Of a stretch of DNA of 64,000 bases, positions 43,943 to 57,873 are shown piece after piece; position 1 is the first letter of the stretch; every line of letters begins with the position of its first letter. Origin of the DNA: Rhodothermales bacterium (GTDB taxonomy: Bacteria > Bacteroidota > Rhodothermia > Rhodothermales > Bin80); assembly GCA_012271205.1 (NCBI GenBank), contig JAAXGT010000180.1, positions 505 to 64,504 of the forward strand, written 5' to 3'. The translations under genes and the position numbers were made by a program. The notes under the pieces were generated by a model. It was given only the letters and a program-made list of their open reading frames with translations, ran no database searches and had not been told where the DNA came from.

Positions 43943-44865
43943 CGTGTTCACTCCGCAGGGTTTTCGCGCAATCAGGATGCGTGCCATCGACGATCAAGCG
44001 GGAACCGGCCCGAGGCAGGTGACCAAGCGGCGCATACGACGTAAATCATACGGAGGAAGCGCGTTATGCCGCTTGCTTCCAGGCGTCCATAATTCTGCTG
44101 CTGTGCGAGGGCTGTAGTTCTGAACAGGTTGCGGGCCGACACCGGGTATCAGACAGCGGCATTGACCGATTGGCCGAGTGAATCTCCGCGCAGAGTGCCA
44201 TGCCACAAGTGGCACGGCTGTACGCCTACGAGTGGTTCAAGGGCTTGCTGGCATGCACGCCGTACAGGCTATCTTGTTACGTTGCCTGTGCAGGAGGTGC
44301 GCCACCACTGGGATAGAAAAAGAATCCTCTGCGACCGTGCATGTGAACAACTTCCGAATGTTGTGCTTTTCCAAGGTAGCACGTCCACCCTTTGGCAATC
44401 GCTTGCATGCTCTGGAACGGCCTGCGCGTCGATGGTGTCCTCACGTATGTGGAGTGTGTTCTTGCCTCATCTTGCGGTTTCAGCTCATGGCCCATGCACG
44501 GGGCAGGACCGTTTTTATGAAGTACGGTTGGGGTGGTCCGCTTGATTGTAGGGTTTGGGCACGTGCGACCCGCTCAAAGCCATCGCGATACCAAGCATAC
44601 GCTCGTGGCTGCATGGAGGATACATTTCAGGAATAGTTTGTGGAGCGTGTGAATCTTGTTCACCGTTCGACCACGAAACTTCTTGACTGTCGTGACACTA
44701 CTTTGAGGTAAGCGATAGCAAAAGCCTCAAGAGACCCTGTTTCGGAGACAGAATTTGTAGCAGTGCCTGTGAAGTATTGGGAACCAAGTCTGGTGTATGC
44801 GTAATTCTGTCTGTGAATAACTAAGTATTTCGACAAGATACCGTGCAACTTGCTTTTTCGGCGAC

Positions 44866-47800
44866 TTGATCAAACCGTCCCCAAGAACCGGGAGTTACCC
44901 GTTGGCTACTGAAGTACATATCTGCGAAGGGCAAGTCTTGACGGGTCCACTGTTTAGGGAGCCGATGCAGGTGGAAACGGTCCGCCCAAACGGGCAAGAT
45001 GTCTGGGTCCTGGGCCTCGTCGGTCAGCGCTCTGAGCAGTTCCGACGGGTCACGTTGACCTCGGAAGAGATCTCAACTCTGACCATTGTCGATTCTGCAC
45101 TTTCCTTTGATGGTGACGGGCGGCTTCTGCGGATCGGCTTGCAAGCTTATTCGCTCGGCATCGCCTACGAGTTCGATCCTTATTTCGGGCTTTCCATTTC
45201 GCGCGTGGATCCGCTGCCGCATCAACTCGAGGCAGTCTACGAACATCTGCTCAAACTTCCCAGCGTACGATTTTTGCTTGCCGACGATGCCGGGGCGGGC
45301 AAGACGATCATGGCTGGTCTGTTGGTGAGAGAACTCAAGCTTCGGGGCCTCATTGAGCGCGTTCTGATCGTCTGCCCCGCCAACCTTTCGTTTCAGTGGC
45401 AGCGCGAGCTTAAGGAGAAATTCGATGAGAAATTCCTGGTGCTGAAGGGCCGCGACATCCGTGACCAGTTCGGGGTCAACCAGTGGATGGAACAGAAACA
45501 GGTCATCACTTCGCTAGACTTGGCCAAGCGCACGGAGATCCTGCCCGGGTTGCGGCAAGTCCACTGGGATATCGTCATTGTGGATGAAGCGCACCGCATG
45601 TCGGCGCGTGACGAGACCCACAGAAGCCAGCGCTATCGTCTCGGGGAACTGTTGCGTGACAGTACGGATCACATGCTGCTACTTACTGCCACCCCCCACA
45701 AGGGCGATCCTCGGAATTTCACGTTGTTTCTGCAACTACTCGACCGGGACGCCTATGCTGACGTCAAATCGATCCGGGAGGCCATGGGTCGGGGGCGGGC
45801 GCCCTTCTATTTGCGGCGCACCAAGGAGGCCATGGTCTATTTCCCTGAGCGCCAGACCGATGGAAGTTGGACTGCAAAGCCCGTCTTCACAAAACGTATT
45901 CCACGCACCGCCAACTTCACCATTGATGGCTCTGAGTTTGAGCTCTACCACAAGATCACGCGCTTCGTGAAACGGCAGAGCGCCCGTGCCGCGGCCAAGG
46001 GCGATGACCGGCGGGCGCGGGCGGTCGGCTTTTTGATGTCGCTATATCAGCGTCGTCTCGCCTCAAGTACCTATGCGATGCGGCGGTCGCTCGAGAATCG
46101 GGCCAGGCGGTTGCAGGAGGGACTCAAGCGCGCCCAGGATCTGGTGCAGACGGCGCCGCCGGACTTGCCTGATTGGGAAGAACTCGAAGAGTTCGAGGAT
46201 GCTGAGCGGGAGCGCTTGGAGCAATTGCTGGAAGCCGTCACGCTGGCAGGAAACGCTGATCAGGTGCATGAAGAGGTTGCCGAGCTCTCGGAGTTGGCCC
46301 AAGAGGCCAAGGTTGTGGAAGAGTCGGACAGCGAGGCAAAGCTTGCACATCTTCGCAAGATCTTACACGAGGAGGGCTTCTTCGACCGTCCTGGCCAGCG
46401 CCTCTTGCTCTTCACCGAGTTCAGGGACACCCTCGACTACCTGATGGACCAGTTGAAAGCCTGGGGCTTCAACGTGGGCTGCATTCACGGCGGCATGAAG
46501 CCCGGCTCGCGGGACGAACCGGGGAGCCGGCTCTACACCGAGCAGCAGTTCCGCGACGGCGCCATCCAAGTGCTGGTAGCCACAGAAGCCGCTGGCGAAG
46601 GCATCAACCTTCAGTGCTGCCACATCCTCTTCAACTACGACATCCCTTGGAACCCAAACCGGCTGGAACAGCGCATGGGGCGTATCCACCGCTATGGACA
46701 ACGGCACGACTGCCTGATCTTCAATTTCGTGGCCACCAACACGATCGAGGGACGCGTGCTCCAGCGACTCCTGGACAAACTCCAGGAGATTCGCGACGCA
46801 CTTGATGACGATGCGGTGTTCAATGTCGTTGGCGAAGTGCTACCGTCCGTGCACATAGAGCGCGTGCTTCGGGACTATTACGCGGGCAGGCTGGGGGATG
46901 CCGATCTCGAGGAGCGACTCCTGAAAGATGTGGACGAAAAACACTTCCGGGCCATCTGTCAGACAGCGCTGGAAGGCTTGGCCACAAAGAAGCTCAACCT
47001 TGACCTGCTCATCAAACGGCGGGCCCGTGCACAGGAGCGACGCGTCATTCCCGAGACTATTGCACGATTTCTCAAGGAGGCTGCTCAGGATGCCGCCTTC
47101 TCCCTGAAACCGATAAGCAGTCCGGCGCATGCGTTTCAGCCGGGTCGAACGCCTTCAGGCCTGAAGAAATATGAACGCGAGACGGACTGGAAATTCGCGG
47201 AATTGGCCATTCAGTACCCGCGCCTGTCGATGGACCGCATTGTGGCAGAAAAGCACAATCTTGAATGGGTAAACCCGGGGCATCCGCTTTTCGAGGCACT
47301 GCGAAGACACGCGTTTGATGCTGGGCAAAATGCTTTTGCTAGGGGGGCCTGCTTTCATTCGCTGGTGCACGAGGCACCCGCGCGGTTCGACTTCTATCGG
47401 GCCCGCGTAGTAGACGGCCTTGGGCATGTCATCCACGAACGGCTGTTTGCCGTGGAGCTGTCACACGACGGACGGCATAGTCTTCGCGAGCCGAATGTAC
47501 TCGGCGATATGAGCCCTGCCACCGCCCCAGACGATCTGCCACCTGTGGCTGCCTTGCCAGAAGACACTGCTTGGCTCAATGAGAACGCCCTTATGCCTTT
47601 TATCAGCGAGGTGCGAGTGGAGCGCGTGGCCGAGATCGAGCGCATTAGCGAACACGTCGAGCTCTCGTTGACGGAAGTCCTGCAGCGGGTTGACGAGGAG
47701 ATCGGTCGCGCTGCCAATGAAGTGAATAGTAAGGTTACCGGCGCGGAAGGGCGTCTCGCACAGGCGGAACGTCGACATGGAGAGGTATTGGCGCGGCGTA

Positions 47801-48342
47801 TGCGCCGTCGCGAAGAACTTACGCGGCAACGGGCATTGACACTGCAGGGCGTCGAGCGGCTCACGAGTGCGCTTGTCTTGCCCCACCCCGAACGTGAGAC
47901 ACTGGATGTCCGGCGCCTGCGCCCGCACCCCGAAACTGAAATGACGGCTATGCAGGTAGTCATGGCATACGAGACCGCGCAAGGGTGCCAGGTCGATGAC
48001 GTTCACAAAAAGAACCTAGGGTATGACATAACCAGCCTTGATCTGAAATCAGGCGAGTTGCGCCTGATCGAGGTGAAGGGGCTGGCCGGCGCTACCGGAA
48101 GCGTTCTGCTTACGCCGAATGAACGGCGGGCTGCCGAGGATCGCCGTGACTGCTTCTGGCTCTATGTCGTAACCAATTGCGCAAGTGCCCCCGAACTCCA
48201 GGAACCCATCGAAGACCCGGCGCGCTTCCCGTGGCATAAGGTCACTAAGGTGCAACACTACTGGCTGAACATCAAGGCCCTGACACGTACGATGGACATC
48301 AGGGAAGGCACAGTCTCCTTTCGCGGAAAGGACAGGCCATGA
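44866..48342 (+). CDS. SNF2-family helicase with C-terminal DUF3883-like PD-(D/E)xK nuclease domain
   Basis: 'LPHQLEAV', 'LLADDAGAGKT' (motif I), 'VIVDEAHRM' (DEAH) and 'QRMGRIHRYGQ' (motif VI). C-terminus 'LGYDITSLD...LRLIEVKG' shows D...ExK spacing. Confidence 0.85.
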   Translation: MIKPSPRTGSYPLATEVHICEGQVLTGPLFREPMQVETVRPNGQDVWVLGLVGQRSEQFRRVTLTSEEISTLTIVDSALSFDGDGRLLRIGLQAYSLGIAYEFDPYFGLSISRVDPLPHQLEAVYEHLLKLPSVRFLLADDAGAGKTIMAGLLVRELKLRGLIERVLIVCPANLSFQWQRELKEKFDEKFLVLKGRDIRDQFGVNQWMEQKQVITSLDLAKRTEILPGLRQVHWDIVIVDEAHRMSARDETHRSQRYRLGELLRDSTDHMLLLTATPHKGDPRNFTLFLQLLDRDAYADVKSIREAMGRGRAPFYLRRTKEAMVYFPERQTDGSWTAKPVFTKRIPRTANFTIDGSEFELYHKITRFVKRQSARAAAKGDDRRARAVGFLMSLYQRRLASSTYAMRRSLENRARRLQEGLKRAQDLVQTAPPDLPDWEELEEFEDAERERLEQLLEAVTLAGNADQVHEEVAELSELAQEAKVVEESDSEAKLAHLRKILHEEGFFDRPGQRLLLFTEFRDTLDYLMDQLKAWGFNVGCIHGGMKPGSRDEPGSRLYTEQQFRDGAIQVLVATEAAGEGINLQCCHILFNYDIPWNPNRLEQRMGRIHRYGQRHDCLIFNFVATNTIEGRVLQRLLDKLQEIRDALDDDAVFNVVGEVLPSVHIERVLRDYYAGRLGDADLEERLLKDVDEKHFRAICQTALEGLATKKLNLDLLIKRRARAQERRVIPETIARFLKEAAQDAAFSLKPISSPAHAFQPGRTPSGLKKYERETDWKFAELAIQYPRLSMDRIVAEKHNLEWVNPGHPLFEALRRHAFDAGQNAFARGACFHSLVHEAPARFDFYRARVVDGLGHVIHERLFAVELSHDGRHSLREPNVLGDMSPATAPDDLPPVAALPEDTAWLNENALMPFISEVRVERVAEIERISEHVELSLTEVLQRVDEEIGRAANEVNSKVTGAEGRLAQAERRHGEVLARRMRRREELTRQRALTLQGVERLTSALVLPHPERETLDVRRLRPHPETEMTAMQVVMAYETAQGCQVDDVHKKNLGYDITSLDLKSGELRLIEVKGLAGATGSVLLTPNERRAAEDRRDCFWLYVVTNCASAPELQEPIEDPARFPWHKVTKVQHYWLNIKALTRTMDIREGTVSFRGKDRP

Positions 48343-49523
48343 CAAAGTCTACCGCGAGGTCGGCATCGCTTGACGAGCAGTGCCCATCGGTTTTTGACGA
48401 TGTGGGTGGTAACGTCGATGTCGCCCGACGATACGCCGCCCATTCCGTGAATGCCGTCATGACCGCTGTTTACTGGCTGATCGGCCGGCACATCGTCGAA
48501 TTCGAGCGGGCGGGCAAAGAGTGGGCTAAGTACCGGGCAGCGCTCATTGAAAAGCTGGCGGCTGATTTGACAAAGCGGTTTGGTCACGGATTCTCTCGCC
48601 AGAATATTTGGCAGATGCGTCTTTTCTACCAGACGTATCCGCCTGGGCGAATTCTCCAGACACTGTCTGGAGAATCGGGACTGATTACCACGAGCCTAAC
48701 TCCGAAGGAAGTATTGGAAGAATCCTCTTTGGCCAGGATCGCCTCACGCTTTCCGCTGTCGTGGTCCGCCTATGTGCGCCTGCTTTCAGTCAAAAACTCG
48801 CATGCCCAGATGTTCTACGAGACTGAAACGCTGCGCGGAGGTTGGTCGGTGCGCCAACTCGACCGGCAGATAAACGCCCAGTTCTACGAACGCCCCGCGC
48901 TCTCGAAGGACAAGGCCGCCATGCTAACTAAGGGCCAAAAACTGCGGCCCGACTATGCCATCCTTCCCGAAGAGGCAATCAAGGATCCGTATGTCCTCGA
49001 ATTTCTGGACCTCAAAGATGAATACGCCGAGAGTGATCTCGAAGAAGCGTTGATCCGGCATCTGGAGGCCTTCCTTCTTGAACTTGGTGGAGACTTCTGC
49101 TTCATGGGCAGGCAGCGGCGTCTACGTATCGGCGATGCATGGTATCGAGTGGATCTACTGTTCTTTCACCGGCGGCTTCGATGTCTCGTTGCCATTGACT
49201 TGAAACTAGGAAAGTTCACCCATGCCGATGCCGGACAGATGCACCTTTATCTCGATTATGCGCGCGAGCACTGGGTCCACGAGGGCGAGAATCCGCCTGT
49301 GGGATTGATTTTGTGTGCCCAGAAGGACGAAGCTATTGCGCGATATGCGCTCGAAGGACTGCCCAACAAAGTAATGGCGGCCGAATACCGAACCACTTTG
49401 CCGGACGAGGCACTCCTCGCCTCTGAAATCGACCGCACTCGGAAAGCACTGGATGCGCGCGGTTTATTGCTTGGGGATAAGGCGAAGCCGCAGCGCGCCA
49501 ACGGCAGCAAGATAGGCCTGTAA
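48339..49523 (+). CDS. YhcG/DUF1016 family PD-(D/E)xK nuclease
   Basis: 'AVYWLIGRHIVEFE...', 'FSRQNIWQMRLFY', 'FLLELGGDFCFMGRQRRLRIGDAWYRVDLLFFHRRLRCLVAIDLKLGKF'. ATGA overlap with the helicase stop. Confidence 0.8.
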   Translation: MTKSTARSASLDEQCPSVFDDVGGNVDVARRYAAHSVNAVMTAVYWLIGRHIVEFERAGKEWAKYRAALIEKLAADLTKRFGHGFSRQNIWQMRLFYQTYPPGRILQTLSGESGLITTSLTPKEVLEESSLARIASRFPLSWSAYVRLLSVKNSHAQMFYETETLRGGWSVRQLDRQINAQFYERPALSKDKAAMLTKGQKLRPDYAILPEEAIKDPYVLEFLDLKDEYAESDLEEALIRHLEAFLLELGGDFCFMGRQRRLRIGDAWYRVDLLFFHRRLRCLVAIDLKLGKFTHADAGQMHLYLDYAREHWVHEGENPPVGLILCAQKDEAIARYALEGLPNKVMAAEYRTTLPDEALLASEIDRTRKALDARGLLLGDKAKPQRANGSKIGL

Positions 49524-49530
49524 GCGTTAT

Positions 49531-52512
49531 ATGATTCCCAAGGAGTGCAAGCGACTCGCCGAGGTAGATTTCCCCATTGCGGAGGTCTCAAAGCACGCGG
49601 CGCGGGAGAAGTCGATCCGGCATGGCCATCCCTCCACGTTGCATCTGTGGTGGGCTCGACGCCCATTGGCATCCTCCCGGGCAGTATTGATGGCGCTACT
49701 ACTGCCGGATCCTTGCGATCCCTATTGCCCGGAGGTATTCAAAGAGGAGGCACGGCGGATTCTTCTGGACATGGACGGACACCCTCGAAGGTGGGCGGAA
49801 ACTATTAAGTCGGACGCGGGACTTCGGCAGATCATCCTGAATTTCATCGCTGATTTCGCCAATTGGGACTTTGCTGCAAACCGCATCTATCTGGATACAG
49901 GTCGCGCACTGGTGAAGGTTGCACATGGTGAGGAGGCGCCCTTGGTTGTGGATCCGTTTGCCGGTGGCGGATCGATCCCACTGGAAGCGCTGCGGCTCGG
50001 CTGCGATGCATTCGCCAGTGATCTCAATCCGGTAGCATGCCTGATCCTGAAGGTGATGCTGGAGGACATTCCGCGTCACGGGCTAGGATTGGCGGAAGAT
50101 CTGCGCAAGGTCGGTGCCGAAATCAAGCGGCAAGCCGAGCAGGAATTAGCCGATTTGTACCCGGAAGATCCCGATGGTTCAACGCCGATTGTCTACCTGT
50201 GGGCACGCACGGTGCGCTGCGAAGCGCCCAACTGTGGAGCGGAGATCCCGCTCATGCGCTCTTTCTGGCTGTGCAAGAAGGTGAAACGAAAATGGGCGCT
50301 GCGACACCGGGTGGAGCGGCCCAGTGGCTCGGCTCCGCATGTCGAGTTCGAAGTGTTCGAGCCAAAAACAGAAAATGAAGTGCATGGCGGTACCGTAACG
50401 CGTGCGAAGGCCACCTGCATGTGTTGCTTGACCGTGCTGCCTCCTGAACGGGTGCGGGCACAGCTCGTGGCGCAGAAGGGCGGTGCAGACGTTGTTTTCG
50501 ATGACCGAGGCCGCCGGACAGGTGGGGCACGCATGACGGCAGTGGTAACGCTGCGACCTAGGCAGAAGGGCCGGCATTACCGGCTGTCGACTGATGCGGA
50601 CTACGCGGCGGTGCACAAGGCCCAGGCGAGGGTGGCGAGAATCCTTGGTGAGTGGGAGCGTGGCGGGAGACAGGGACTCTGCCCGGTGCCCGATGAGCCG
50701 ACGCCTGCCGGAGGAGGCTCTGGCGCTGGTCGTGCGTTCAGCGTCCAGCGCTACGGCATGCTTCAGTGGGGCGATCTGTTCACGGCAAGACAGAAGGTGG
50801 CGCTGGTGACCATTGCGAACTCAATTAGGAAGGCACATCATCCAGATACTGTACGTGCCCTATTGGCATGTGGTTTAAGTGTGTTTGCTAGAGCTTGTAA
50901 CGGCAACGCAAGGCTAAGACCGGACTCGTCTGTTGCCCCAGCCTTTGGAATGCATACTTTGCCAATAACGTGGTCATTTCCAGAAACCATTATATCTGGC
51001 GGACGCTCGGAACATTTCGACGGGGCACTGTCGAATGTGATTCGCATTATCGAGAAGTGGCCACCGTTTTCTAATGGGCAAGTTCAGCTCGCCGATGCCA
51101 CCCATCATCCGCTTCCAGACCAGGCCGCTGGCATCTGGTTTACCGATCCACCGTACTACGATGCGATCCCGTATGCAGATCTCTCCGACTTCTTCCTAGT
51201 TTGGCTCAAGCGTGTACTGCCCGACCAATCATTGCTGCGCGACCCGTTCGATCCGGACAATCCACTTTCGCCTAAAGCGGCCGAGATCGTGCAAGACGAA
51301 ACCAAGCAAGCCGATGGCCGGCTTAAGGGTCGCCAGTGGTTCGAGGAGAGCATGGCCAAGACCTTTGCCGAAGGCCGGCGCGTGCTGCAGGAGGACAGCG
51401 TGGGTTCCGTCGTCTTCGCACACAAGACCACCGAGGGCTGGGAAGCGCTGCTCTCGGGCATGATTCGTGGCGGTTGGACCATTACAGGGTCGTGGCCAAT
51501 TGCGACTGAAATGAGTTCGCGCTTGCGTGCCCGCGATTCTGCTGCGCTTGCCACCAGCGTTCATCTCATCTGTCGCCCGCGACCACAGGACGCCCCTGTC
51601 GGCGACTGGGCAGATGTGCTGCGTGAACTGCCCAAGCGTGTCCGTAACTGGATGGAGCGCCTTCAAGGTGAAGGCATTCGAGGCGCTGACCTGGTCTTTG
51701 CATGTGTTGGTCCCGCGCTTGAGATTTTCAGCCGCTACCGCGCAGTGGAGACCGCAGAGGGTCGCGAAGTTAACTTGACAGAGTATTTGGAGAAGGTCTG
51801 GGAAGTCGTGGGTCGCACGGCACTCGAACAGGTCCTTAGTACCGCCGAATCGTCCGTACGCAACGACGTGACAGGCGCACTAGAGGAAGACGCCCGCCTG
51901 ACCGCTTTATTTCTCTGGACACTTCAGAGCACGGAAACGTCCCACAGCGACGACAACCAGAATCAGGAGAATGGGGAACTCCCTTCCAAAAAGGCCATCA
52001 AGGGATTCAGCCTCCCATTCGATGTTGTGCGCCGTTTCGCTCAACCCATGGGCATTGATCTGAACGCCTGGACCGGTCGCATCATCGCACAGCAAAAAGG
52101 TGTGGTGCGCCTGCTGCCGGTCATGGAACGGGCCAACGATCTTTTTGGTGAAGGTGGTGCGAGTGCCGCTGCGGACTGGGTTGAGACTGATCTGGATAGA
52201 AACATTCAGGGAACACTCTTTCCTGAATTCGATGCTGCTCCATCGATAAGAAAACGTCGACGCGGCCGAAAGAGTATCATTAAGGACGGTGCGGAACTTC
52301 AGGCAATCGATGCCACGGTGCTGGATCGGGTGCATGCCGCTATGCTTCTTCAGGCCAATGGTCATGCTAATGCGCTGCGAACCTTGGTCAGTGCCGAACT
52401 GGATCGCGGCCCAGAGTTTCTGCGACTGGCCAACGCGTTGTCGGCGCTGTATTTACGTGGCAGCCAAGAAAAGCGACTCCTAGACGCTATGCTCTTGGTT
52501 TGTCCACGGTAA
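49531..52512 (+). CDS. DUF1156 Zn-ribbon DNA methyltransferase (N6-adenine type by motif)
   Basis: 'DFPIAEVSKHAAREKSIRHGHPSTLHLWWARRP' (DUF1156); 'VVDPFAGGGSIPLEA' (motif I, aa ~139); 'CEAPNC...CMCC' ribbon; 'FTDPPYYD' (motif IV, aa 539). Confidence 0.85.
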   Translation: MIPKECKRLAEVDFPIAEVSKHAAREKSIRHGHPSTLHLWWARRPLASSRAVLMALLLPDPCDPYCPEVFKEEARRILLDMDGHPRRWAETIKSDAGLRQIILNFIADFANWDFAANRIYLDTGRALVKVAHGEEAPLVVDPFAGGGSIPLEALRLGCDAFASDLNPVACLILKVMLEDIPRHGLGLAEDLRKVGAEIKRQAEQELADLYPEDPDGSTPIVYLWARTVRCEAPNCGAEIPLMRSFWLCKKVKRKWALRHRVERPSGSAPHVEFEVFEPKTENEVHGGTVTRAKATCMCCLTVLPPERVRAQLVAQKGGADVVFDDRGRRTGGARMTAVVTLRPRQKGRHYRLSTDADYAAVHKAQARVARILGEWERGGRQGLCPVPDEPTPAGGGSGAGRAFSVQRYGMLQWGDLFTARQKVALVTIANSIRKAHHPDTVRALLACGLSVFARACNGNARLRPDSSVAPAFGMHTLPITWSFPETIISGGRSEHFDGALSNVIRIIEKWPPFSNGQVQLADATHHPLPDQAAGIWFTDPPYYDAIPYADLSDFFLVWLKRVLPDQSLLRDPFDPDNPLSPKAAEIVQDETKQADGRLKGRQWFEESMAKTFAEGRRVLQEDSVGSVVFAHKTTEGWEALLSGMIRGGWTITGSWPIATEMSSRLRARDSAALATSVHLICRPRPQDAPVGDWADVLRELPKRVRNWMERLQGEGIRGADLVFACVGPALEIFSRYRAVETAEGREVNLTEYLEKVWEVVGRTALEQVLSTAESSVRNDVTGALEEDARLTALFLWTLQSTETSHSDDNQNQENGELPSKKAIKGFSLPFDVVRRFAQPMGIDLNAWTGRIIAQQKGVVRLLPVMERANDLFGEGGASAAADWVETDLDRNIQGTLFPEFDAAPSIRKRRRGRKSIIKDGAELQAIDATVLDRVHAAMLLQANGHANALRTLVSAELDRGPEFLRLANALSALYLRGSQEKRLLDAMLLVCPR

Positions 52513-52517
52513 CAAGT

Positions 52518-53855
52518 ATGATCCCAATGAATCAGATAGCACTGGAGAATTACCGCTGTTTCCACGAGCGGCAGGTCGCCCACCTGGCACCGCTGACCCT
52601 GCTCGTCGGCGAGAACAGCACCGGTAAGACCTCCTTCTTGGCCATGATACGGGCGTTGTGGGACATAGTCTACCGCCGTCGTAAACCCAACTTCAAGGAA
52701 GAGCCCTACGATTTGGGAAGTTTCGATGAGATAGCCCACCATCGAGGTTCCCGGGGTAGCCGCGCTGACAGGTTTGAAGCAGAACTCAGTTTTGATCAGG
52801 TCTATCAAGCTAATATCACTTTTAAAAGGCAAGGAGCGATGCCAGATCCAGTACGAAGGCGTCTTGCCCACGGGAAGATTTGGATCGAAGATGCATTTGA
52901 GGCAGATCAATCCCACATGATTCGTCGCGTTGGAACTGACAGAGGGACTTGGGAGTGGCGAATTATGGAAGAGTTGGAAGATCCCGTGTTCTATATTGGT
53001 GGTCCGGAGCAGATATGGCCGGCAGATTTCCAAGAATTCTCACGCCTCCGTAACGCTCAAGAGAGCCGCGAGCACTTCAGATCGTTGTCAGGCTCTCCTG
53101 CCTTTAACAGCCAAGATGCGAGTTCGATATTACAACTCTTGTTTTCTCGTAGGCTGAGTGGCCAAGATCGGCCTTTCGCGAGTGCGCCAGTTCGATCCAA
53201 ACCGCGCCGCACGTACGATCCAGCTCGCTCCACACCAGATCCGGAAGGCGACTATGTTCCCATGTATCTTGCCAATTTGTTCATCCAGGACGAAGGAAAG
53301 TGGGCAAGACTCAGGGAAAAGCTGCAGAGATTTGGGAAAAACGCTGGACTCTTTGATGAAATCTCTATAAAACGGTTGGGGAAAAAGATGGGTGGACCTT
53401 TTCAGGTCCAAGTTAGGAAATTCGGAAGCAGCCTGAAGGGCCCCCAGCGCAACCTGATTGACGTGGGGTACGGCGTCAGTCAAGTGTTGCCGGTTATTAC
53501 CGAGCTTCTGCGTCCAAATGCACCCAACATGTTCCTTCTACAGCAACCGGAAGTGCACCTCCATCCCAGTGCCCAAGCCGCTCTGGGAAGTCTGTTCTGT
53601 GAGATCGCTGGACCGAGCCGACAATTGGTAATCGAGACCCACAGCGATTACCTGATGAACCGGGTTCGTATGGACGTTTGTGACCGCAAGACGGAATTGA
53701 AACCCGATGATGTCTCCATTTTGTTCTTTGAGCGAAGGGATTTGGATGTTCATATCCATTCACTCCGGCTGGACGAGGAGGGAAACGTGCGAAACGCGCC
53801 CGAGTGTTACCGCAGGTTCTTCATGGAAGAGACGCAGAGATCTTTGGGACTCTGA
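52518..53855 (+). CDS. ABC/SMC-like AAA ATPase (AAA_21/DUF3696-like), embedded module gene 1
   Basis: Walker A 'GENSTGKTS', signature-like 'DVGYGVSQVLPV', Walker B/D-loop 'MFLLQQPEVHLHP' and H-loop 'IETHSD'. ATG 52518 lies 5 nt after the methylase stop; the ORF-track TTG 52500 overlaps it. Confidence 0.75.
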   Translation: MIPMNQIALENYRCFHERQVAHLAPLTLLVGENSTGKTSFLAMIRALWDIVYRRRKPNFKEEPYDLGSFDEIAHHRGSRGSRADRFEAELSFDQVYQANITFKRQGAMPDPVRRRLAHGKIWIEDAFEADQSHMIRRVGTDRGTWEWRIMEELEDPVFYIGGPEQIWPADFQEFSRLRNAQESREHFRSLSGSPAFNSQDASSILQLLFSRRLSGQDRPFASAPVRSKPRRTYDPARSTPDPEGDYVPMYLANLFIQDEGKWARLREKLQRFGKNAGLFDEISIKRLGKKMGGPFQVQVRKFGSSLKGPQRNLIDVGYGVSQVLPVITELLRPNAPNMFLLQQPEVHLHPSAQAALGSLFCEIAGPSRQLVIETHSDYLMNRVRMDVCDRKTELKPDDVSILFFERRDLDVHIHSLRLDEEGNVRNAPECYRRFFMEETQRSLGL

Positions 53856-53858
53856 GAA

Positions 53859-54326
53859 ATGTGTGCTATTCTTGATGCAAATGTTATCCACGAGGTGTTT
53901 GGAAGCAATCGTTCCCCGGCTGGCGAGCAGTTCTTCCATTGGATTAACACTGGGAACGGGCGCTTGGTAGTTAGTGACAAACTGCTGGAAGAACTTGACA
54001 CCGCTTCTAAAGGCTTCAGGGAATGGGCAGCGCAGGCTCTAATTGCTGGAAGGATGAGAAAGTCAAGGGCGGACCAAGTCAGTGAAAAGGCAGAAGAACT
54101 TCGGCAGGCAGCTCTATGCAAGTCAAATGATCTTCACATTATTGCCCTTGCCCAAATCAGTGGTGCCCGTCTGTTGTATTCCAACGACAGAAAATTACAG
54201 GACGATTTCGGGAAAAAGGCTCTGATCGATAGGCCGCGAGGGAAGGTTTATAGCGCTAGCATAAGCAAAGACTATAAACGCAGGAAACTGCTGGCAAATA
54301 GAGATTTATGCCGGGAGAGGCGATGA
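53859..54326 (+). CDS. PIN-like domain protein, embedded module gene 2
   Basis: 155 aa. Acidic residues in 'AILDANV', 'LLEELD', 'SNDLHIIALAQ' and 'LYSNDRKL' are spaced as in PIN nucleases. Starts 3 nt after the ATPase stop. Confidence 0.5.
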   Translation: MCAILDANVIHEVFGSNRSPAGEQFFHWINTGNGRLVVSDKLLEELDTASKGFREWAAQALIAGRMRKSRADQVSEKAEELRQAALCKSNDLHIIALAQISGARLLYSNDRKLQDDFGKKALIDRPRGKVYSASISKDYKRRKLLANRDLCRERR

Positions 54327-54389
54327 TTGCGGCTATATGCAGTAAAGACTGGTGCAGGCCATCATCAATAATTCTATTAGGGAAATAGG

Positions 54390-57170
54390 ATGGCATTGAT
54401 CCCTTGGTATAAAATCGTCACGCTTCGTCGAGAAGTGCGAGAAGGCCGCTCATTCAGTCCAGACGAGTTCGCCATTGCCCTTGAGCAGGTGGTCGCGGGC
54501 ACCGCCCCTAAGGATTACCGGGATCCAGCCCAGTTTTTCTCCAGAACCTGCTTTACCCGTGCGTTGAAGGAGCATGTTGGCATGGTGCTCCGCCGACTTT
54601 CCGGCAAAACCGAGAACACGCCGCCGGTCCTTACTCTTATCACGCAATTTGGCGGTGGCAAGACGCACACCCTTACGTCGCTCTATCACTTGGCTAGGGC
54701 CGGTGCAGGCGCCTCCGACCTTCCGGGTGTATCCGATCTGCTTAAGGAGGCGGGGATCGCAAAGGCGCCCTCGGCCCGCGTCGGGGTATTTGTCGGCAAC
54801 GCCTGGGATCCGGTGGAGGGTCGGGAGACGCCATGGATTGATCTGGCGCGTCAACTCGCGGGCAATCAGGGCGTGGCCGCGCTTGGGGCTGCCGCTCGGA
54901 CGATACCGCCGGGGACAGAGGCGCTCGCCAACGTATTTGCCACTGCAGACGCTCCCGTGCTCTTGCTGTTCGACGAAGTCCTCAACTTCGTCAACCGCCA
55001 TAGGAGCATGGCCGAGAGTTTTCACGCCTTCATCCAGAATCTGTCCGTTGCGGTCACCGGGACCACGCAAGCGGTCGCTGTTATCAGCCTGCCTCGCAGC
55101 CAGGTTGAAATGACCGATTGGGATCAACAGTGGCAGGACCGGATCACCAAGGTGGTTCGTCGGGTGGCCCGTGATCTGATCGCCAATGACGAATCCGAAA
55201 TCAGTGAAGTCGTGTGCAGGCGGCTGTTCGGGGATAGAGGAAACGTGCGCACTCGCAAGAAAGTAGCCAAGACCTATGCGGACTGGTGCTTCGAGCGCAC
55301 TGCGCGCCTCCCGGCGGAATGGTTGGCTGTCGACACCGCGATAACAGAGGCGAAGGCAAAGGAGTTTCTCAAGCACCGGTTCGAGGCCTGTTACCCATTC
55401 CATCCTGCGACCCTTTCGGTCTTTCAACGAAAGTGGCGCGCACTTACTCAGTTTCAGCAGACCCGGGGCGCACTGGCCATGCTCGCGCAGTGGATATCGA
55501 CGGCCTCTAAAGAGCAGTTCCGAAAGGCGCGAACGGAGTCGCTGATTACACTTGGTTCGGCACCGTTAGACATTCTGGAGTTCCGTGCTGTCGTGCTGGG
55601 TCAACTGGGTGAGAATCGGCTTGATGTGGCTATCAACGCCGACATTGCTGGACGTATGGCGCATGCTCAGGCCCTTGATGCTGATGCCCAAGGCGCGCTG
55701 CGCGACATCCATCGGCGTGTGGGGACGTCGATTCTGTTCGAGTCTTCCGGCGGGCAGGTGGACAAGGTCGCCCATTTGCCGGAATTGCGCTTCGCACTGG
55801 GTGAGCCGGCGATCGACACAACGACCATTGACAATGCCGCAGCAGCCTTGGAAGCAAAAGGATTCTTTATTCGAAAGGTGGGTACCGACGGCTATCGCAT
55901 CCACCACCAGGCGACCTTGAAAAAGGTGGTCAGCGACCGGCGCGCGTCGCTGGACGAAGAGACGGAGGTCAAGCCGGCCATCCGCAAGCTTGCCGAAGGT
56001 GAGTTCCGCCGTGGTGCAACCCTGCCCGTTGTAGTCTTCCCTAAGGATAGTGCCGCGGTCCAGGATACTCCGCGTCTGACACTGGTCATTCTTGACCCGG
56101 AAACGGAATGGATCAGCGGTGACCAAGTAGTTGACCGTATTGGGCAATGGACGAAGGAGCGTGGCCCATCGCCCCGACTCTACCCGGGTTCTATCGTCTG
56201 GTGTGCCAAAGCGCCTGGGCGTAAGCTTCGTGAAAAGGTTGAGTTGTGGCTCGCCTGGCGGCGGGTGGCACTAGAAATTGCTGAAGGTGTACTGGGTGCC
56301 GAATTCGACCGAACTGATCGAGCCAACGTGCAGGGCAAGGTCAAGGAAGCGGAGGAGGCATCAAAGGATGAAGTGTGGGCCAGTTACCGATTCGCTGTAC
56401 TTTTGGATTCACAGGAGCAGGGTGGGTTTAGGATCATTGACCTCGGGGCTGGCCATTCGAGTGCGAGTGAAACTCTCTGTGGGCGCATTATTGGCGCGTT
56501 AAAATCCGAAGCGCTGCTCAACGAAAGCGTGGGAGCTGGCTACATTGAGCGGCACTGGCCGCCTGCTTTTAAAGACACTGGAGCTTGGCCGCTTACCAGT
56601 TTGCGACAGAGCTTTCTCGACGGCTCGTTAACGCGGTTGATCGATCTCGAGAAGATTCTTTGTCGGCAGATCACCCGGTTTGTATCCAATGGAGATTTTG
56701 GCTTGGCGTCGGGTCTTGAGGACGATGGAAGCTATAGGCGGGTGTGGTATGCGGAATCGATTTCACAAGAAGAAGTTGTGTTTGAGCCGGGCGTCTTCCT
56801 GCTGACCCAAACCAAGGCTAAGGAACTCAGATCTAAAGACACTCCTCAGCCACGCCCGCAACCCCCACCAGATCCCGTTCCTGAACTTGGCCCGAGGCCG
56901 GATCCTAAACCGAGTCTGGACGAGGGAAAGATGTGCCTACGGCTTATTGGCAATGTGCCTCCGGAAGTATGGAACAGGCTTGGAACCAAAATTCTGCCCA
57001 AGCTGCGGTCCCGGTCCTTGGATAACCTCCGTGTTGGCATCGAATTCTCCGCAAGTGGTAGTACCACTCACGTCCGGCGATTGGAGGCGGATTTGCGTCA
57101 GATTCTAGATGAATTGGAGCTGGGTGACCGAGTGCGTGTTGAGAAGACGGATTCCCCTCATGATGCCTAA
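54390..57170 (+). CDS. DUF499 family ATPase (COG1483-type)
   Basis: Walker A 'QFGGGKTHTL', Walker B 'VLLLFDEVLNF', 926 aa, and a Pro-rich linker 'PQPRPQPPPDPVPELGPRPDPKP' before a small C-terminal domain. Confidence 0.8.
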   Translation: MALIPWYKIVTLRREVREGRSFSPDEFAIALEQVVAGTAPKDYRDPAQFFSRTCFTRALKEHVGMVLRRLSGKTENTPPVLTLITQFGGGKTHTLTSLYHLARAGAGASDLPGVSDLLKEAGIAKAPSARVGVFVGNAWDPVEGRETPWIDLARQLAGNQGVAALGAAARTIPPGTEALANVFATADAPVLLLFDEVLNFVNRHRSMAESFHAFIQNLSVAVTGTTQAVAVISLPRSQVEMTDWDQQWQDRITKVVRRVARDLIANDESEISEVVCRRLFGDRGNVRTRKKVAKTYADWCFERTARLPAEWLAVDTAITEAKAKEFLKHRFEACYPFHPATLSVFQRKWRALTQFQQTRGALAMLAQWISTASKEQFRKARTESLITLGSAPLDILEFRAVVLGQLGENRLDVAINADIAGRMAHAQALDADAQGALRDIHRRVGTSILFESSGGQVDKVAHLPELRFALGEPAIDTTTIDNAAAALEAKGFFIRKVGTDGYRIHHQATLKKVVSDRRASLDEETEVKPAIRKLAEGEFRRGATLPVVVFPKDSAAVQDTPRLTLVILDPETEWISGDQVVDRIGQWTKERGPSPRLYPGSIVWCAKAPGRKLREKVELWLAWRRVALEIAEGVLGAEFDRTDRANVQGKVKEAEEASKDEVWASYRFAVLLDSQEQGGFRIIDLGAGHSSASETLCGRIIGALKSEALLNESVGAGYIERHWPPAFKDTGAWPLTSLRQSFLDGSLTRLIDLEKILCRQITRFVSNGDFGLASGLEDDGSYRRVWYAESISQEEVVFEPGVFLLTQTKAKELRSKDTPQPRPQPPPDPVPELGPRPDPKPSLDEGKMCLRLIGNVPPEVWNRLGTKILPKLRSRSLDNLRVGIEFSASGSTTHVRRLEADLRQILDELELGDRVRVEKTDSPHDA

Positions 57171-57379
57171 CAGACTAAAAGCTTTCCGTGCAAGCTGTCT
57201 CCCCATGAGGCCGTTGCTGGCCACATTACCCAAACACCAAACGAACGGTCAAATGCAATACTCGTGTTTTGCGTTCTGAGGTGCTGGAGCATAGAAAATC
57301 GATAAAGGGAGCGTGTTCAGTCCAAGTAATGGCGATATCCGTGAGTCCAACCAAACGGGTTATCCAGTGAACCTTGGTG

Positions 57380-57873
57380 AATGCCACCAGACATACATCT
57401 TGCTACAGCACAAATGTTCACTCTGCAAGATTGTCACGCAATCAGGGCGTACGCTACCCTTGATAAAGCGGGAGCTGGATCGCAACGGGTGTCCAAGTGG
57501 CGATTACGATCCCAATTAGGCGGAGGCAAGCGCACGTGCGTGGCGCAGAGCAGAATCGAGGCAGTGGCGCGTTATGCATACATATGCTATGGGCATCTGA
57601 AATTTGCATGCGGTTGCGTAAGAGCTGGTGCCCTGAACAGATCGCAGGTTGGTGCTATGAGTCTGTCTGTCAAGAGAATCTACGTGCAGATTGCTGATCT
57701 GTGGACGGCACGCTGTACCGACACTTGCGGCACAAGAGCATCGCAGCTACAAGCGCGCGGCAAGCTGCGTAGGCATCGAAGAACACCCGCTGGAAGTCGA
57801 TGCGAAGTTGTGTGTGGGCGACTGGGAGGTGGATCTTGGCCGAAGGGTATTTGCTTACGCCGGTAGAGCGTAA
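57380..57873 (+). mobile_element. IS30-family transposase remnant (frameshifted, truncated)
   Basis: 'GRTLPLIKRELDRNG' (HTH 'GRSPSTISRELKRN'-like), 'SWCPEQIAGW' ('WSPEQIAG'), 'RIYVQI' and 'GDWEVDL' ('GHWEGDL') lie in three different frames. Homology stops before the DDE core. Confidence 0.55.

Follow-up and report, generated by a model that had tools for sequence, protein, structure and literature searches.

Two adjoining genes, coding for an ABC-type ATPase of 445 amino acids (aa) and a PIN-domain protein of 155 aa, lie inside the Hma operon of a Rhodothermales bacterium (assembly GCA_012271205.1, contig JAAXGT010000180.1, positions 505 to 64,504 of the forward strand; this whole stretch of 64,000 nucleotides (nt) is called the window here). 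The pair is almost certainly a conflict or defence module, and the reading that we favour, with a probability of about 0.68, is that of an autonomous, mobile defence cassette of the abortive-infection type, with the architecture of the published HEC-03 (Hma-embedded candidate 03), inserted in the site between HmaB and HmaC. A preliminary description had proposed a sensor ATPase with an effector nuclease, which is judged the most reasonable interpretation also here, and its coordinates for the open reading frames (ORFs) and the 3-nt spacing between them were borne out. The two genes are the following:

52518..53855, + strand: ABC ATPase, 445 aa, NsnB-like and HEC-03-ATPase-like, with a DUF3696 tail (ORF, Pfam, PADLOC, AlphaFold2 model)
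53859..54326, + strand: PIN-domain protein, 155 aa, VapC-like, presumed nuclease effector (ORF, Pfam PIN, AlphaFold2 model)

Relatives of the PIN protein were searched for in a collection holding one genome per species (185,579 species), which revealed matches at 298 places; the locus counts given below refer to the 80 best PIN-encoding loci among these. The ATPase gene was located directly upstream of the PIN gene in 78 of the 80 loci, the two exceptions being a contig end and an orphan PIN gene. In the window, the last nucleotide of the ATPase stop codon (TGA) is 53855 and the PIN gene starts with an ATG at 53859, and this gap of 3 nt is also the mode among the relatives (32 of 67 pairs), nearly all the others being spaced within around 20 nt. 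Therefore, the ATPase and the PIN protein are paired far beyond chance. The pairwise distances within the two families were correlated as well (r = 0.68, compared to 0.16 at most when the labels were permuted 1000 times), host phylogeny being shared and contributing to this value. When the 1503 flanking ORFs of the 80 loci were clustered, no conserved third gene was found and the neighbours were highly variable. Rare decayed or orphan copies are represented by locus L088 (3139-3327), where the PIN protein is truncated after 63 aa behind an ATPase 69% identical to that of the window, and by locus L056 (2278-2706), an orphan PIN gene whose upstream 2.2 kb contain no ATPase.

Nine of the 80 loci contained full Hma genes, and in each of these the pair lay between HmaB and HmaC; in four more (L006, L014, L023 and L027) only fragments of HmaB or HmaC surrounded the pair, whereas the other 67 had no Hma genes within 10 kb. 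The two genes thus make up an autonomous, mobile cassette, for which the embedding site between HmaB and HmaC has been a repeated point of entry. The Hma-embedded pairs fall at no fewer than five separate positions (at least) on the ATPase tree. In Rhodothermales Hma operons whose Hma proteins are around 70% identical to those of the window, the ATPase is only 47-57% and the PIN protein 53-57% identical, and the closest relatives of the ATPase (around 70% identity) lie outside Hma, one close relative being carried by a plasmid-like contig with RepA_C and resolvases. In the four loci with fragments, the C-terminus of HmaB is found upstream of the ATPase, directly adjoining it in L023 and L027, and L006 has an N-terminal fragment of HmaC downstream as well; none of the four keeps an intact Hma, and they look like decayed remnants of Hma operons or cassettes excised with flanking DNA.

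Multiple copies were observed at some loci. Three tandem ATPase+PIN copies, divergent on the tree, are present in a Rhodothermales metagenome-assembled genome (MAG; L077, OZ241874.1, approximately 3.5-10.5 kb), and two ATPase copies lie within a single Hma operon in L070. In three Nitrospirales MAGs (L016, L037 and L064), Hma contains, besides the pair, further ABC ATPase genes matching HEC-01A, on both sides of the pair in L016 and L037, and genes of the HEC-01B/DUF4276 type, so that several embedded cassettes are stacked there between HmaB and HmaC. According to the record titles, the hosts of the family are overwhelmingly uncultivated (Dehalococcoidia, Caldilineaceae, Latescibacterota, Entotheonella, Rhodothermales, Nitrospinota and Gemmatimonadota), lineages that are typical of sponge microbiomes. 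A protein identical to that of the window was found in 'ROBB19' metagenome assemblies.

The ATPase was matched by Pfam AAA_15 (1.4e-19), AAA_21 (1.1e-17) and, at aa 394-429, DUF3696 (4.7e-5, 24 bits, with a cutoff of 22 bits), and its homologues formed 7950 clusters. An AlphaFold2 model built from 49 homologues (pLDDT, the predicted value of the local distance difference test, 79.8; predicted template modelling score (pTM) 0.84) matched Rad50/SMC heads, the PtuA proteins of Septu and retrons (8sux, 8eea, 9n69) and Gabija GajA, because of which the protein is predicted to be an ABC ATPase with a beta-rich Insert-1. The best PADLOC model was NsnB, along the full length (1.2e-45, aa 4-430), followed by PDC-M55A (7e-35), the HEC-03 ATPase (7.4e-29) and AriA (7.5e-22). 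NsnB belongs to Menshen (NsnA-NsnB-NsnC), a system reportedly described by Millman et al. in 2022. The HEC-03 ATPase model reached 99.1 bits, with its positions 264-433 (of 458) aligned to aa 257-431 only, the AriA models matched the C-terminal part only, and the PtuA hidden Markov models (HMMs) only the N-terminal P-loop region (aa 4-68). PDC-M55, a three-gene candidate, was ruled out as the identity of the pair. The Pfam, PADLOC and structure matches agree with the preliminary assignment to ABC-type ATPases, within the OLD/PtuA/AriA/NsnB radiation, but the kin named there were PtuA and AriA, and the closest relative, NsnB, had been missed.

The motifs of the ATPase are given below with their conservation, which here and in the rest of the text was counted across 68 ATPase+PIN pairs; the four motifs quoted in the preliminary description translate exactly at the positions assigned to them.

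52608..52634, + strand: Walker A/P-loop GENSTGKTS, aa 31-39 (G31, G36, K37 and T38 in 68/68 pairs, and likewise invariant in the ATPase family alignment)
53460..53495, + strand: signature-like motif DVGYGVSQVLPV, aa 315-326, of GxG..SQ form (G317, G319 and Q322 in 68/68 pairs)
53529..53567, + strand: Walker B-like strand MFLLQQPEVHLHP, aa 338-350 (Q342, Q343, P344 and E345 in 68/68 pairs)
53631..53648, + strand: H-loop IETHSD, aa 372-377 (E373 and H375 in 68/68 pairs, D377 in 67/68)
53697..53855, + strand: DUF3696 region, proposed PIN docking site (Pfam DUF3696, secondary structure of the model, alignment with the HEC-03 ATPase tail)

The ABC head fold, the Walker A, a GxG..SQ variant of the signature and the H-loop are therefore all present, and H349 is also invariant, but the D-E dyad of the Walker B is replaced by Q-Q: the positions of the canonical Walker B Asp and of the catalytic Glu are occupied by Q342 and Q343 (53541-53546) in 68/68 pairs. 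In alignments, the QQPE of the window ATPase corresponds to EEPE in Thermus OLD (6p74) and to DQIE in retron PtuA, and the equivalent in NsnB has been reported as E-N. In NsnB the canonical SGG signature is likewise replaced by GxG (PMC12065111). This invariant replacement makes canonical hydrolysis chemistry doubtful; as far as the sequence can tell, the protein probably binds ATP and would be a slow hydrolase at best, unless E345 substitutes, and the Q-Q Walker B suggests an ATP-binding switch with little hydrolysis. The DUF3696 region is modelled as a beta-hairpin (aa 399-418) and a terminal helix (aa 429-443) and, by analogy with AlphaFold3 models of NsnB-NsnC (PMC12065111), may be the site where the PIN protein docks.

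The small protein consists of a single domain, with no additional one, that scored 36.2 bits (1.1e-8) with Pfam PIN (PF01850), above the gathering threshold of 23.6 bits, and its family comprised 1324 homologue clusters at E<=1e-3. The AlphaFold2 model, built from 37 homologues (pLDDT 84.8, pTM 0.83), best matched VapC toxins (5x3t_B, E 2.2e-4, and then 3zvk, 3h87 and FitB), with Foldseek TM values to VapC of 0.52-0.61. When the PDB was searched by sequence, the PIN profile retrieved nothing beyond a marginal VapC match (E 0.66) and spurious EndoS matches, and a PHROGs search gave nothing. Five acidic residues (D6, E45, D91, D110 and D116) are kept in 67-68/68 pairs, and their placement in the secondary structure of the model is that of a PIN domain, with D6 after beta1, E45 in the helix after beta2, D91 before helix 92-101 and D110 after the beta strand 105-107. 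The candidates for catalysis are:

53874-53876 (D6), 53991-53993 (E45), 54129-54131 (D91) and 54186-54188 (D110), + strand: PIN catalytic candidates (conservation)

As K37 and H375 of the ATPase and D6/E45/D91/D110 of the PIN protein are all kept in 67-68/68 pairs, both active sites are under selection. Conserved Cys and His residues of the PIN protein, C2 (53862-53864; 67/68), H93 (68/68), H141 (61/68) and C151 (54309-54311; 68/68), may form a site for a metal or a disulfide bond; in the model, pLDDT is low along the C-terminal tail. The PIN fold and the acidic site proposed earlier for the small protein were supported by Pfam, by the VapC-like model and by conservation, and the two checks on which the module could have failed, a non-PIN fold and genes that do not co-occur, came out in its favour.

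The approach of 'guilt-by-embedding' was introduced on Hma systems by Payne, Hughes, Fineran and Jackson (2024; bioRxiv 10.1101/2024.01.29.577857), who defined HEC-03. In their Pseudomonas cichorii pair, an ABC ATPase (WP_025259138.1, a 'DUF3696 domain-containing protein' of 461 aa) is combined with a VapC-like PIN protein (WP_025259137.1, 157 aa). In E. coli, the P. cichorii pair reduced the plaquing of several phages, and both genes were needed (bioRxiv 10.1101/2024.01.29.577857). The pair of the window has this same architecture, with a DUF3696-tailed ABC ATPase of similar size followed by a co-directional, adjoining PIN gene and no other conserved gene, so that an ATPase+PIN system is not, as had been supposed, unnamed or undescribed. 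Both kinds of pair are embedded in Hma, yet they occur also outside it, as in the case of an authentic HEC-03 pair, among the loci fetched, in a P4-like island that also carries integrase, AlpA and DUF927. In hhalign, the ATPase family of the window aligned with the full HEC-03 ATPase in the C-terminal half and tail (28% identity, 218 columns, E 8e-21), and NsnB and PDC-M55A are among the three best PADLOC models of both ATPases, ahead of AriA; for the authentic HEC-03 ATPase they come next after its own model (NsnB at 206 bits), whereas for the window ATPase both rank ahead of the HEC-03 model. In a profile alignment of the two PIN families, the D/E/D/D catalytic motifs are in register, and both have conserved Cys and His residues (C23, C27, C150 and H153 in HEC-03), with an 'LC' motif at the C-terminus among them.

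The differences are also considerable. The PADLOC-DB v2 models of HEC-03 (PDLC04147 for the PIN protein and PDLC04148 for the ATPase) recognized the authentic proteins, used as positive control, with 283.8 bits (9.4e-86) and, along the full length, 884 bits, respectively, whereas the PIN protein of the window was not matched by PDLC04147, nor did BLASTP detect similarity between it and the HEC-03 PIN protein. The N-terminal half and Insert-1 of the two ATPases were not alignable, the Walker B is QQPE in the window family versus EQPE in HEC-03, and the two HEC-03 genes share an overlap of 14 nt, compared to the 3-nt gap of the window. The hosts differ too, HEC-03 being found in Pseudomonas and Burkholderia and the window family in Rhodothermales, Chloroflexota, Latescibacterota and others. 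The window pair is thus HEC-03-like in architecture, context and ATPase clade, and belongs to a separate, divergent sister family that is missed by current models.

Menshen offers the closest parallel for the ATPase, as the window protein is NsnB-like in its GxG signature, in the lack of a canonical catalytic Glu after the Walker B and in its DUF3696 tail, and a PIN-fold partner is encoded directly downstream. NsnB ATPases end in a DUF3696 helix, and in AlphaFold3 models the Menshen assembly is NsnB4-NsnC2, with the inactive PIN domain (inPIN) of NsnC located between the two DUF3696 tails of an NsnB dimer, which resembles effector binding in Septu PtuA-PtuB and PARIS AriA-AriB (PMC12065111). 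The inPIN domains are without the D-E-D-D residues (PMC12065111), and in NsnC this inactive adaptor makes up the N-terminus and is joined to a C-terminal effector domain, BECR or another, whereas the window PIN protein stands alone with D-E-D-D intact. In addition, the window ATPase is around 100 aa longer than the NsnB model, and the pair has no NsnA (ParB/DUF262) sensor gene, the gene upstream being HmaB; DUF262/NsnA was not among the recurrent neighbours in the 80 loci, and the Menshen paper contains no two-gene forms without NsnA (PMC12065111).

Other known systems resemble the pair in part. PARIS also consists of two genes, an ABC ATPase (AriA) and a nuclease effector (AriB, Toprim), and its sequester-and-release logic serves as a template for the mechanism, but the effector of the window is a PIN and not a DUF4435/Toprim protein, the AriA match is partial and AriB is absent. 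The ABC fold of the window ATPase matches PtuA structures of Septu and retrons, in which the C-terminal domains of the ATPase bind the effector, but PtuB is an HNH protein, there is no HNH in the window and the PtuA HMM match is partial. The fold and the acidic site of the window PIN protein are closest to VapC toxins (5x3t, 3zvk, 3h87); however, the small DNA-binding antitoxin VapB of VapBC modules is absent, and the upstream partner is the 445-aa ABC ATPase (78/80 loci).

The mechanism that we propose is modelled on these systems. The two genes would be co-transcribed and probably translationally coupled, a co-expression that is read from the gene layout and the 3-nt gap. The ATPase would form a dimer or tetramer whose DUF3696 tails clamp the PIN protein and hold it inactive, by analogy with the AlphaFold3 models of NsnB-inPIN and with Septu and PARIS, and a phage-derived trigger may be sensed via the variable, divergent Insert-1 beta-domain. 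ATP binding would then produce a conformational change by which the PIN protein is released or activated, efficient hydrolysis being less likely, given the invariant Gln at each of the two acidic positions of the Walker B. The freed PIN protein, given its VapC-like fold, might cleave RNA (tRNA, rRNA or mRNA) like VapC toxins, with the consequent arrest of the cell or the phage, that is, growth arrest or abortive infection. A third gene would not be necessary for such a mechanism.

In the window, the pair is embedded in a complete Hma system, in which PADLOC identified HmaA, HmaB and HmaC in one operon. The genes that surround the pair are:

44866..48342, + strand: HmaA, SNF2 helicase with NOV_C domain (PADLOC HmaA 4.8e-172)
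48339..49523, + strand: YhcG/DUF1016 PD-(D/E)xK protein, second embedded candidate, PDC-S02 (Pfam YhcG_C 1.8e-57; PADLOC PDC-S02 4.5e-129)
49531..52512, + strand: HmaB, DUF1156 methyltransferase, directly upstream of the pair (PADLOC HmaB 2.5e-104; Pfam DUF1156)
54390..57170, + strand: HmaC, DUF499 ATPase, directly downstream of the pair (PADLOC HmaC 6e-91)

The six + strand genes from HmaA to HmaC form a single continuous, co-directional operon. The ATG of the ATPase (52518) comes 6 nt after the HmaB stop, and 63 nt separate the PIN stop (54326) from the HmaC ATG (54390). The GC content is 52.4% for the ATPase gene and 48.5% for the PIN gene, compared to 58-59% for the Hma genes. A scan of the operon for promoters and terminators gave no signal exceeding the shuffled expectation. 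No tRNA gene that might mark an integration site was detected in the window, nor was there an integrase among the scanned flanking ORFs of the Hma island (44000-57200), which is flanked by housekeeping genes (DHDPS-family and Nramp upstream; MscS, FolD and a TonB-dependent receptor downstream). The YhcG/DUF1016 gene (48339-49523), located between HmaA and HmaB with a 4-nt overlap with the HmaA stop, has homologues in the equivalent place of the related Rhodothermales Hma loci L008, L043 and L070. Downstream of HmaC, an ORF of 161 aa (57381-57866, + strand) had no Pfam, PADLOC or NCBIfam match.

Several observations weigh against a defence cassette. Most copies are located amid housekeeping genes and outside defence islands, the immediate neighbours in a PADLOC and Pfam scan being mostly genes such as those for valyl-tRNA synthetase (ValRS), FtsK, RNase J, GlnA, short-chain dehydrogenases/reductases (SDRs) and hydrolases, with PADLOC matches for approximately 5-6 of 132; thus, of the occurrence outside Hma-like loci, in defence islands, that had been raised earlier, the first part held (67/80) and the second, for most copies, did not. 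No relatives were found when the viral contigs of IMG/VR were scanned for the PIN family. Homology of the PIN families of the window and HEC-03 can be claimed at the superfamily level only, as no PADLOC model matched the window PIN protein up to E<=10 and the alignment of both families by hhalign was weak (E 0.0056, probability 6.5%), and the defence function proposed for the window family is drawn from analogy and from embedding. Part of these observations would suit a toxin-antitoxin or addiction cassette, in which the ATPase takes the neutralising role of VapB towards a VapC-type PIN toxin and the pair stabilises the plasmids or islands that carry it. The best structural matches of the PIN protein are VapC toxins, the copies are mostly lone two-gene islands amid housekeeping genes, a close relative lies on the plasmid-like contig with RepA_C and resolvases, and one genome has three tandem copies (L077). 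We nevertheless regard this role as unlikely: the architecturally identical HEC-03 is anti-phage and requires both genes (bioRxiv 10.1101/2024.01.29.577857), other defence cassettes lie beside the pair in the Hma embedding hotspot, where it is found repeatedly, and an antitoxin would need far less than an ABC ATPase of 445 aa whose nucleotide-binding motifs are conserved. Toxin-antitoxin and abortive-infection roles are not mutually exclusive, and an addiction cassette would be compatible with a role in defence.

The layout of the operon could also indicate that Hma includes the two proteins as integral accessory subunits, for example as the nuclease arm of a helicase/methylase/ATPase complex, as the genes are co-directional, with gaps of only 6 and 63 nt to HmaB and HmaC and no internal promoter or terminator above chance. 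This is, however, very improbable given the 67 loci that carry the pair without Hma genes within 10 kb, the divergent pairs from other clades of the tree (ATPase 47-57%, PIN 53-57% identical) in operons with Hma proteins around 70% identical, the GC content of the pair, which differs from that of the Hma genes, and the definition of Hma itself, which does not include ATPase+PIN genes. Scarcely credible is, finally, a reduced or degenerate Menshen, non-functional, in which NsnA has been lost and NsnB remains with a remnant of NsnC, the PIN protein being an inactive adaptor. NsnB is certainly the best PADLOC model of the ATPase (1.2e-45, full length), and NsnC begins with a PIN-fold domain predicted to dock on DUF3696 tails (PMC12065111), but the D-E-D-D residues absent from inPIN are kept by the window PIN family in 67-68/68 pairs, and no DUF262/NsnA was found among the recurrent neighbours. 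Moreover, both proteins are 50-70% identical across many phyla, which argues for purifying selection on a working pair.

With regard to its meaning, the kind of system formed by an ABC ATPase and a PIN protein has already been published and validated as HEC-03, of which the window pair is a new relative, and the basic picture is unchanged because both the architecture and the anti-phage role were known (bioRxiv 10.1101/2024.01.29.577857). What is new is a widespread, divergent family missed by PADLOC, with an invariant Q-Q Walker B and conserved Cys/His residues in the PIN protein, that bridges HEC-03 and Menshen. A bolder proposal, which we put forward only tentatively and hold to be rather doubtful, is that the pair represents a distinct, uncatalogued lineage of NsnB-like ATPase with a competent PIN protein, constituting a missing link between HEC-03 and Menshen, with a non-hydrolysing switch and a metal site formed by Cys/His residues of the PIN protein (C2, H93, H141, C151). 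If this were true, the contact between the DUF3696 tail and the PIN protein would be ancestral, and the PIN protein would have been an effector first and only later the inactive adaptor (inPIN) of NsnC.

The window family widens HEC-03-type defence well beyond what current detection models capture; PADLOC v2 would label only a partial ATPase match in the window and miss the PIN protein. A pair of HMMs built from the family alignments would add a widespread system to the defence catalogues, with the greatest gain for Chloroflexota, Latescibacterota, Rhodothermales and other lineages represented only by MAGs; the family is common in uncultivated phyla that are apparently associated with sponges and marine environments. 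An NsnB-like ATPase with a standalone PIN protein also provides a simple two-protein model for the control of a PIN-fold partner by the DUF3696 tail, a question posed by Menshen, and its invariant Gln-Gln Walker B, a natural 'EQ-type' state, could help to decide whether the release of the effector is gated by ATP binding or by hydrolysis.

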